From the IMG/VR virus record IMGVR_UViG_3300035696_000002: 64,000 nucleotides of DNA; one strand, given 5' to 3'. A program made the translations under genes and the position numbers. Below, piece after piece: positions 39,925 to 42,628 of this stretch. This DNA comes from a virus (lineage: Duplodnaviria > Heunggongvirae > Uroviricota > Caudoviricetes). The notes beneath the pieces were generated by a model that was not told the DNA's origin, searched no databases, and saw only the letters and a program-made list of their open reading frames with translations. Position 1 is the first letter of the stretch, and every line of letters starts with the position of its first letter.

Positions 39925-39958
39925 AGACCCGCCAAAAACTGGCGGGTTTTGCATTTTT
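39925..39958 (+). terminator. Attenuator terminator upstream of tRNA-Trp
   Basis: ACCCGCCA-AAAAC-TGGCGGGT followed by TTTGCATTTTT. Confidence 0.85.
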
Positions 39959-39971
39959 AGTGGGAAAATTC

Positions 39972-40045
39972 GGGGGTGTCGGTTAATGGCAAACCAGCGG
40001 TCTCCAAAACCGTGACTGGGGGTTCAAGTCCCTCCACCCCCGCCA
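39972..40045 (+). tRNA. tRNA-Trp(CCA)
   Basis: GCGGT-CTCCAAA-ACCGT, GCCA end. Confidence 0.93.
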
Positions 40046-40064
40046 AAAGATTGAGGCGGAGATT

Positions 40065-40692
40065 ATGGAATTGAAGATTGAACAGCAGACGCGAGGCACC
40101 CGCATCCTGCGGGGGGAGTCAGCTACCCGGAGGCGACTTCATCTCATCTAGTCTCGCAACAGCAGCGACGGCAGCCGGGTACGAGGAAATCGTACTCCCG
40201 TCGCTAGAGCCAGCCGCTCTCTACGCTGAAAAGGCTGGCCCTGAGATTCTGGGACAGATGTACTGCTTCCCGGACAAGAAAGGCAGGCAGTTGTGCCTGC
40301 GACCGGAAGGAACGGCGACCTGTCAGATACTCGCCGACACGGTAATGAAAATGGAGCGAGACGTGAAGCTCTGGTATCTGACGACCTGTTGGCGTTACGA
40401 ACGACCACAGGCTGGGCGGTACCGGGAGTTCACACAGTTCGGGGTGGAAATCCTGAACCCACGCGGCCCCGTCCGGGATGAGTTAGTGGCTTTGGCCGAA
40501 AGCATGGTGCGGCAGTTCACGGATCAGTATGAAGTGAACGCGGCAGTCAAGCGGGGGCTGGCCTACTACGTCGAGGATGGCTTCGAAATCAGTTGCCCGG
40601 CACTGGGGGCTCAGAAGCAAGTCTGCGGCGGCGGTTCATACAAGCAAGGCTGCGGTTTCGCAATTGGGGTAGATCGCATGATGCTTGTGTGA
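40065..40692 (+). CDS. Histidyl-tRNA synthetase catalytic-core-only protein, split by +1 frameshift near 40137-40142
   Basis: RGTR N-terminal motif in frame of ATG 40065; LRPEGT, WRYERPQAGRYREFTQFGVE, RGLAYY, GGGSY, GFAIGVDR in the +1 frame; no anticodon-binding domain. Confidence 0.85.
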
Positions 40693-40697
40693 CGTAT

Positions 40698-40774
40698 GGT
40701 GGGCGTAGCTTAATGGTTAAAGCATCTGGCTGTGAACCAGAAGGTTGCGGGTTCGATTCCCGTCGCCCACCCCA
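40698..40774 (+). tRNA. tRNA-His(GTG)
   Basis: G-1:C73, loop CTGTGAA, CCA. Confidence 0.95.
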
Positions 40775-40785
40775 AAATTTTATAT

Positions 40786-40863
40786 GGTGTCATTGGTGTA
40801 GGGGCTTATCACGGCGGACTGTGAATCCGCTATTCGTGGGTTCGAATCCCACATGACACCCCA
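40786..40863 (+). tRNA. tRNA-His(GTG), second divergent copy
   Basis: G-1:C73, GCGGA-CTGTGAA-TCCGC, CCA. Confidence 0.92.
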
Positions 40864-41022
40864 AGATTGGAAGTGCACCATGTGGTACGACGACAACGTG
40901 TGCGAAGTTTGCGGGTTGGAAAAGCCGGACGTTCGTGAACGCGAGTGCGGTTACTCGATGGAACTGACTGGCGAAGTGCACTTGGAAGTTATTTGCGATG
41001 ACTGCGAACACCAGCATTGCAT

Positions 41023-41099
41023 GGACGTGTAGCTCAGTTGGATAGAGCGTTCCCCTCCGAAGGGAAAGGTCGCAGGTTCGACTCCTGCCATGTCCACCA
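41023..41099 (+). tRNA. tRNA-Arg(CCG)
   Basis: TTCCC-CTCCGAA-GGGAA, ACCA end. Confidence 0.95.
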
Positions 41100-41347
41100 G
41101 TTTATGAGTAGAACATTTACAATTCACGATACGGAACTCGCTACGTTCGAGAAGTTCAAGGCAGAGCACGAACCAAAGTGCGTCTACCACGGCGACACGA
41201 TGGCGAATCCGGGGCACATTCGGTACTTCACGCCGACATCGGCGTACACGATTATGTTCAAGCCGACAGGCGTCGGTGACGGCGTGCATGTGAAGTGCCT
41301 TTGCGGTGAAGAGGTAGACATCACCGATTACGAATTGTGGTAGTTTT

Positions 41348-42560: not shown

Positions 42561-42628
42561 GGGGGCGTAGCTCAATGGTAGAGCAGCCCACACAAGGGAA
42601 GATGCGGGTTCGAGTCCCGCCGCCCCCA
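42561..42628 (+). pseudogene. tRNA-like element with truncated anticodon arm
   Basis: GGGGGCG/CGCCCCC acceptor, canonical D and T arms, CCC-ACACAA-GGG arm, no CCA. Confidence 0.6.

Follow-up and report, generated by a model that had tools for sequence, protein, structure and literature searches.

How can an enzyme be produced from a gene whose start codon and N-terminal motif lie in one reading frame while its catalytic motifs lie in another? This question is posed by a gene at positions 40065-40692 on the plus strand of a 64,000-nucleotide (nt) stretch of DNA, which we refer to as the window, from the Caudoviricetes record IMGVR_UViG_3300035696_000002. The predicted product resembles a histidyl-tRNA synthetase (HisRS) reduced to its catalytic core, and we call it mini-HisRS. 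Our preferred answer, to which we assign a probability of about 0.7, is a programmed +1 frameshift of the type found in prfB and Ty1, with a "hungry" histidine codon occupying the A site of the ribosome, through which the mini-HisRS would regulate its own synthesis.

A catalytic core split between two frames

The zero-frame part of the gene (40065-40139) starts at ATG 40065-40067, is served by the ribosome binding site GAGGCGGAG (40053-40061, read from the sequence), and runs through codons 1 to 25, MELKIEQQTRGTRILRGESATRRRL. It holds the conserved N-terminal HisRS motif RGTRIL..GE and is homologous to the N-termini of in-frame relatives and of Escherichia coli HisRS. Ribosomes that remain in this frame would add H-L-I and terminate at TAG 40149-40151, releasing a peptide of 28 amino acids (aa). 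The remainder of the gene (40141-40692) is in the +1 frame and reads ISSSLATAATAAGYEEIVLP ... GFAIGVDRMMLV up to the stop TGA 40690-40692, encoding class II motifs 2 and 3 as well as the HisA and HisB histidine-binding motifs. This frame is open from 40078 to the same TGA and matches the Pfam family PF13393 (E 7.8e-21). At the junction, an internal Shine-Dalgarno (SD)-like GGAGG (40129-40133) is followed by the spacer CGA (40134-40136), which places it 3 nt 5' of CTT (Leu, codon 25, 40137-40139), and CAT (His, codon 26, 40140-40142) comes next. An initial sequence-only reading of the window had described this zero frame with its ribosome binding site, the catalytic motifs in the +1 frame and the junction GGAGG-cga-CTT-CAT at 40129-40142, and all of its coordinates hold.

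If CTT-C is read as a single step, the two parts join into a 208-aa product (P0001), ...RRRL-ISSSL..., which phmmer aligned to E. coli HisRS (1kmm) with an E-value of 7e-26 in an unbroken stretch, 10-144, that crosses the junction; a second aligned stretch spans the histidine-binding motifs. The product is also gapless against in-frame homologs across the junction, so that the HisRS spacing which the sequence-only reading expected a slip from CUU to UUC to restore is indeed recovered. RPEGT, RYERPQAGRYREFTQFG, RGLAYY, GGGSY, and GFAIGVDR were all aligned to 1kmm, so that motifs 1-3 of the class II catalytic core are present together with those for histidine binding. Nothing in the product corresponds to the insertion domain (E. 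coli residues ~149-249) or to the C-terminal anticodon-binding domain, and it stops shortly past motif 3. An AlphaFold2 model of the fused product, built on an alignment of 19 relatives, has a predicted local distance difference test score (pLDDT) of 90.5 and a predicted template modeling score (pTM) of 0.88, and in it a helix at residues 18-36 passes through the junction at 25/26. The best structural matches to this predicted fold in Foldseek were E. coli HisRS structures, with query template modeling (TM) scores of 0.88-0.89 (1kmn 0.88). On the basis of these alignments and the model, the 208-aa product is predicted to be a HisRS-like mini-paralogue consisting of the catalytic core alone, and no canonical HisS. 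Class II motifs 1-3, the RGLxYY and GGGxY histidine-binding motifs and the fold (TM 0.88) are common to it and the bacterial enzyme (E. coli 1KMM/1KMN), but bacterial HisRS is twice its size and carries the insertion and anticodon-binding domains. Identity as HisZ was considered and rejected, with an E-value of 3.9e-6 for HisZ 3od1 versus 7e-26 for HisRS and with tRNA genes as the immediate neighbors in the window, although no search of the genome for hisG was made.

The shifted product of the window contains no histidine. The open reading frames (ORFs) of this phage average 2.3% His, only 1 of 114 ORFs of 180-240 aa is His-free, and the probability of finding no His in 208 aa is 0.008. Such a composition would be sensible, since an enzyme called for by a shortage of His-tRNA ought to be made without consuming His-tRNA itself.

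Conservation and anatomy of the proposed shift site

To place this gene in a wider context, about 160 loci were gathered from two scans of viral contigs, a tblastn search of GenBank phages, and one scan of bacterial and archaeal genomes, and were sorted according to whether the conserved N-terminal G-T-R motif shares a frame with the G-Y/F of motif 1. Distinct homologs numbered 41 with a frame break (window included) versus 81 in frame. The distance from GT(R) to GY is 82 nt in every frame-broken copy, versus 81 nt in in-frame copies whose N-terminal segment is full length and 72-75 nt in those of a subgroup with a segment 2-3 residues shorter. Exactly one base must therefore be skipped, and skipping it restores a gapless alignment.

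The frame-broken set comprises 21 phage contigs, from IMG/VR and GenBank, and 20 bacterial genomes. Among the bacterial carriers are five Chromobacterium species, Andreprevotia, Parachitinimonas, Collimonas, Paraburkholderia, Polyangiaceae, Kofleriaceae, and Thalassospira, and the endosymbiont Ca. Pseudomonas adelgestsugas also has a frame-broken copy (L148), with the site TTT CAT. The bacterial frame-broken copies L144-L164 form a tight clade in which ORF1, the zero-frame part, reads MTMIRGTR...RFRSWLH-stop; they are not accompanied by tRNA arrays, a tRNA gene within 1.5 kb being present only at the Thalassospira locus (L158), and beside the Chromobacterium copy L151 the sole recognizable gene encodes an AraC-type regulator. 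In-frame mini-HisRS genes whose products are 57-65% identical to that of the window occur in Massilia, Undibacterium, Hahella, Pleionea, and Pseudomonas megaplasmids (L108-L134), so the miniature enzyme is not confined to phages; one in-frame carrier is CP185741.1, a 971-kb megaplasmid of Pseudomonas fluorescens. A tRNA-His gene lies within 1.5 kb of 12 of the 21 frame-broken phage loci, versus 4 of 23 sampled in-frame loci.

One cultured isolate has the frame-broken gene, Sinorhizobium phage Phosso (PV764938, 469 kb), in which the gene (L025:1407-2049, PV764938.1 4044-4686) has the site CGA GGT TGT CTT CAT CGA AGC TGA. Its GenBank coding sequence XYS97181.1, labeled "histidyl-tRNA synthetase", was annotated from an ATG inside the +1 frame and therefore misses the true N-terminus, MLRGTRVISGNEARAYTNAIDTLRGCL, which lies upstream in the zero frame. 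The Phosso gene is thus mis-annotated as N-terminally truncated, and probably all relatives are too.

The junction itself is uniform across the 41 copies. The codon before the break is CTT in 29, GTT in 11, and TTT in 1, the codon after it, which would occupy the A site, is CAT in 34 and CAC in 7 and thus encodes His in every copy, and in the DNA alignment TTCA is invariant. The sequence-only reading had proposed checking homologs for conservation of the site and the frame break, and an NTT-CAY junction is present in 41 of 41 distinct frame-broken copies. In the remainder of the same genes, CTT accounts for 15% of the codons for Leu and GTT for 25% of those for Val, and ORF1 is saturated at synonymous sites (pS 0.70). 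Because of this saturation, and because CTT and GTT are minor codons elsewhere, the conserved junction is not inherited background. The ratio of nonsynonymous to synonymous substitution rates (dN/dS) in ORF1 is ~0.43, and both halves of the gene are, by this comparative evidence, under selection. Eight in-frame relatives were read at the DNA level, some of them nested in the frame-broken clade, and at the corresponding place NTT-CAY is absent from all eight.

Two copies narrow the position of the frame change considerably. In L069 and L102 a TAG in the +1 frame directly precedes TTC, and a zero-frame stop lies 1-3 codons past CAY, which restricts the change to the NTT and CAY codons. More generally, the zero frame ends at UGA right after the His codon in 25 of the 41 homologs.

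The site does not always occupy the same place in the gene. Its distance to GY is 13 nt in the large frame-broken clade and 37-40 nt in the window, L028, and L135, and these positions are non-homologous; despite this, the total length is the same and the alignment to in-frame relatives is gapless. Parsimony places 5-8 changes of frame state on the tree. The tree does not show independent origins, and a topology holding all frame-broken lineages together was not rejected (approximately unbiased (AU) test, p = 0.59), a result that counts against us; a constrained tree that joins the large frame-broken clade to the window, L028, and L135 in fact scores higher than the unconstrained alternative. 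Two separate acquisitions of the site nonetheless appear likely from its placement, because a move of one site by eight codons without insertions or deletions is hard to picture.

Upstream of the site, an SD-like element, the putative stimulator, is the usual finding. The duplex energy predicted between the 12 nt upstream and the 16S rRNA tail (anti-SD) is -9.5 kcal/mol for the window site and averages -7.9 kcal/mol over the frame-broken phage copies, with 15 of 21 at or below -6. At the equivalent position in in-frame homologs the mean is -0.84 kcal/mol and 1 of 49 reaches -6, while control windows within the same genes average -2.1 kcal/mol and reach -6 in 8% of cases. A GGAG, GGGG, or GAGG core is present in the hexamer from -9 to -4 in 36 of the 41 copies.

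These features suggest a mechanism in which ribosomes would initiate at ATG 40065 and read 25 codons, coming to rest with peptidyl-tRNA-Leu on CUU 40137-40139, CAU 40140-40142 in the A site, and GGAGG paired with the 16S rRNA tail as in prfB. If His-tRNA-His were slow to arrive, the P-site tRNA could slip from CUU to UUC (40138-40140), exchanging a wobble G:U for a G:C pair, after which the next codon would be AUC (Ile) and the catalytic core would be synthesized. If His-tRNA-His were plentiful, CAU would be decoded and termination would follow three codons on at TAG. Output of mini-HisRS would then be inverse to the level of charged tRNA-His, a negative feedback of the RF2 type in which the sensed species is an aminoacyl-tRNA, and the His codon acting as the sensor would never be decoded on the productive path. 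All of the P-site codons have U-U followed by C, so that tRNAs with G34/A35 (Leu-GAG, Val-GAC, Phe-GAA) would swap a G:U wobble for G:C, and the phage encodes tRNA-Leu(GAG). As for the sensor codon, CAT is the rarer His codon in this phage (1036 CAT versus 1862 CAC). Taken as a whole, this anatomy suggests that ribosomes would shift here, that CUU would be the codon that slips, and that histidine limitation would raise the efficiency.

The sequence-only reading had proposed an RF2-like +1 shift in which CUU occupies the P site and a His codon the A site, a proposal that the comparative data support, and had gone on to suggest that the synthetase is made only when His-tRNA is scarce, as a feedback sensor. 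The sensor part of that proposal fits a His-free enzyme (35 of 41 frame-broken copies) and the presence of a His codon at both non-homologous site positions. The word "only", however, is probably too strong, because prfB in E. coli shifts at ~28% when growth is normal (PMC5373646).

Competing explanations and weak points

If a +1 shift does occur at NUU-CAY, it need not be regulated. It is possible, though in our view unlikely, that the site shifts at a set ratio, its fixed low efficiency throttling a potentially harmful synthetase, with no sensing role for the His codon. A slippery NUU-C with an SD 3 nt upstream can act without starvation, as the ~28% shift of prfB in normal growth attests (PMC5373646). 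But for a throttle any slow codon, or a stop, would do, and yet 41 of 41 copies have His there, at two positions that are non-homologous; the gene product, moreover, charges tRNA-His by prediction and is itself His-free, and the in-frame relatives show that the protein tolerates ordinary expression signals. A shift one codon later, which we consider very unlikely, would have the His decoded and peptidyl-tRNA-His on CAY move +1 at a slow next codon, giving ...L-H-SSS... with no change in product length, in the manner of a prfB-like "shifty stop". The codon right after CAY is UGA in the 25 copies mentioned above and CGA in 9 of 41, which would suit this alternative. CGA is a slow codon in many bacteria. 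That next codon varies, however, being CTC in the window and CGC, AGC, CCA, GGA, or CAA elsewhere, tRNA-His would be unable to re-pair on AUN or ACN, and the only His of the product would then be at the sensor. A P-site slip from NUU to UUC is what the alignment indicates, since T-T-C is invariant while Leu, Val, and Phe alternate.

Two further explanations dispense with frameshifting altogether, and each strikes us as extremely improbable. The break could be an assembly or sequencing indel, a concern for any single metagenome-derived record, or the gene could be a decaying pseudogene. The site is no homopolymer, though, and the same break with its hexamer is present in 40 other distinct sequences from independent assemblies, one of them an isolated phage; for a pseudogene, both halves are open and conserved, ORF1 has a dN/dS of 0.43 at saturated dS, and the fused product is predicted to fold well. 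The other possibility is that two products are made, a 28-aa leader peptide controlling separate initiation of the downstream domain by attenuation or coupling. A short ORF whose last codons include His does resemble his-type leaders, and TTG 40078 opens the +1 frame in the window, but in 16 of the 41 copies the +1 frame offers no ATG, GTG, or TTG, upstream of the junction or close to it, from which this part could start separately. The product from TTG 40078 would begin with 21 unrelated residues in place of the RGTRIL motif, while the HisRS N-terminal motif that ORF1 carries is fused in frame in 81 relatives and in E. coli HisRS, and the junction falls in the middle of a predicted helix. We also considered, and rejected, quadruplet decoding by an unusual tRNA-His, both adjacent tRNA-His genes having normal 7-nt CUGUGAA anticodon loops, as well as transcriptional slippage, there being no homopolymer at CTTCAT and no conservation of the G-run at 40111-40116.

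Regulated frameshifting at the His codon is thus the reading we prefer, and several observations weigh against it in addition to the tree result given above. The frameshift is something that we infer from sequence anatomy alone. An SD-like core is absent from the hexamer in 5 of the 41 copies (L042, L045, L061, L067, and L078), and these five together with L080 make up the 6 of 21 phage copies with duplexes weaker than -6 kcal/mol. RNAalifold found 0 conserved pairs downstream of the site across the 41 sequences, so the efficiency of the shift may be low; in the window, folding downstream is modestly better than that of shuffles (z = -1.9). CAU and CAC are not rare codons, and a pause is therefore expected only under limitation, which is itself assumed. 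His-free products are also found in 39 of the 81 in-frame copies versus the 35 of 41 with a break, so that avoidance of His is a trait of the family and is not specific to frameshifting. Finally, we assume that a core without an anticodon-binding domain can carry out aminoacylation.

Related systems, implications, and genomic setting

Autoregulation by frameshifting is known in the case of release factor RF2 and in that of polyamines (antizyme). The likeness to prfB, which the sequence-only reading had offered as its model, proved exact in spacing and in codon number: the E. coli K-12 DNA reads AGG GGG TAT CTT TGA C, in which CTT is codon 25 and TGA codon 26, where the prfB frameshift takes place (PMC5373646), and the window reads CGG AGG CGA CTT CAT with the same codon numbers and the SD-like element likewise exactly 3 nt upstream. 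Both have a short ORF1 and a functional body in the +1 frame, in both a P-site CUU would re-pair on UUN, and in both the A-site codon would be served by the gene's own product or activity, which would yield negative feedback. According to the review by Atkins et al., CUU_U is highly conserved among prfB sites and UUU_U forms a minority (PMC5009743), and a minority UUU variant exists here too, in L148. In some copies, such as L065 with AGG GGG TCT CTT CAT TGA, the site is nearly that of prfB plus an inserted His codon. The two systems nonetheless differ, since the A-site codon is a UGA stop in prfB and a sense His codon here, which makes the present site an analogue of prfB and no prfB site. 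A release factor is sensed there and, as proposed, His-tRNA-His here, and the gene considered here encodes a synthetase fragment, is mostly found in phages, and has its zero-frame stop after the sensor codon.

In yeast Ty1, ABP140, and EST3 (CUU_AGG_C, CUU_AGU_U), peptidyl-tRNA-Leu likewise moves from CUU to UUN while a slow sense codon waits (PMC5009743), but these sites are eukaryotic and lack an SD stimulator, and the slow codon there is due to a rare tRNA, sets a fixed ratio, and is unrelated to the function of the encoded protein. Hungry-codon frameshifting as described by Gallant and Weiss shares with the proposed mechanism a +1 shift favored when the A-site aminoacyl-tRNA is limiting, although it is known from laboratory constructs and errors, and a 2016 review stated of functional trans-frame products of such frameshifting that "no examples are known" (PMC5009743). 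The hisL attenuator and T-box control of hisS also sense charged or uncharged tRNA-His for histidine-related genes; there, however, the outcome is transcription termination through RNA structure, while here it would be a decision on reading frame inside a coding sequence. Full-text literature searches turned up no description of a frameshifted HisRS or of phage Phosso.

On balance, and with some reserve, we favor the broader view that this site is a natural amino-acid gauge, in which a slip at a single His codon would turn on a His-free mini-HisRS in dozens of jumbo phages and several bacterial lineages. It would then be the first natural hungry-codon frameshift whose product is functional and specific to starvation, and also the first case of a synthetase that regulates itself via reading frame. 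If this is true, cells and viruses would have a third way of reading aminoacyl-tRNA supply, beside attenuation and T-boxes, the 41-copy family would supply examples of hungry-codon frameshifting with a functional product, and the presence in jumbo phages of truncated synthetases that adjoin their own tRNAs would be accounted for. It would also mean that a compact, portable amino-acid sensor can be built in ~20 nt, with a specificity that might be re-programmed by changing one codon. The cultured pair of Phosso and Sinorhizobium meliloti makes the hypothesis directly testable.

The gene sits within a tRNA island on the plus strand, in an IMG/VR virus record that measures 463,033 bp as a whole, with 55% G+C and 68 tRNA genes. 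Upstream, a terminator-like hairpin followed by a T run (39925-39949, plus strand; a 10-pair stem with 6 G-C pairs in a consensus scan) is likely to be the end of the preceding transcription unit. Between this hairpin and the start codon there is no his-type leader or attenuator; only a tRNA-Trp(CCA) gene is present (39972-40045, plus strand, ARAGORN), ending 19 nt 5' of the start codon.

Downstream, two tRNA-His(GTG) genes follow on the same strand. The first, at 40698-40774, begins 6 nt past the mini-HisRS stop and has an encoded G-1 (40698), C73, and CCA; ARAGORN delimited it as 40699-40774, whereas G-1 and the acceptor stem come from inspection of the sequence by eye. The second, at 40787-40863 (ARAGORN and sequence), has G-1, C73, CCA, and a normal 7-nt anticodon loop. 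Mini-HisRS presumably charges these two phage tRNA-His. Both genes carry G-1:C73, the acceptor-stem identity set, and this acceptor-end set could be readable by a core without an anticodon-binding domain. Next in the island, after the pair, come Arg, Asn, Gln, Cys, and Lys tRNAs (ARAGORN).

Several minor features of the same region and phage deserve mention. Between the tRNA genes of the window, a small ORF at 40853-41032 encodes a Cys-rich peptide of 59 aa that has paired CxxC motifs (zinc-ribbon-like), and a 108-aa frame runs from TTG 41017 to 41343, overlapping tRNA-Arg, for which ATG 41106 is the likely start (~79 aa). At 42561-42628, also in the tRNA island, ARAGORN reported a tRNA-like gene for which it gives the "anticodon" as undetermined, with two bases (ac), and the loop of which may be non-standard. 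Elsewhere in the phage, beyond the window, an uninterrupted 239-aa class II synthetase-like ORF (L189:1225-1944, equal to G000:C1:304511-305230) matches PF00587 at 28.5 bits, slightly below the cut-off, with a weak match to PF01409, and it may be another miniature synthetase. Also beyond the window, on the minus strand at G000:C1:238747-239065, there are three tandem tRNA genes with CUA anticodons (amber suppressors; tRNA-Pyl according to ARAGORN), which adjoin two tRNA-like genes with odd anticodon loops. TAG terminates 75 of the 392 long ORFs of this phage, and the zero frame of the mini-HisRS gene, if its TAG were read through, would continue for 26 more codons and then end at TGA.

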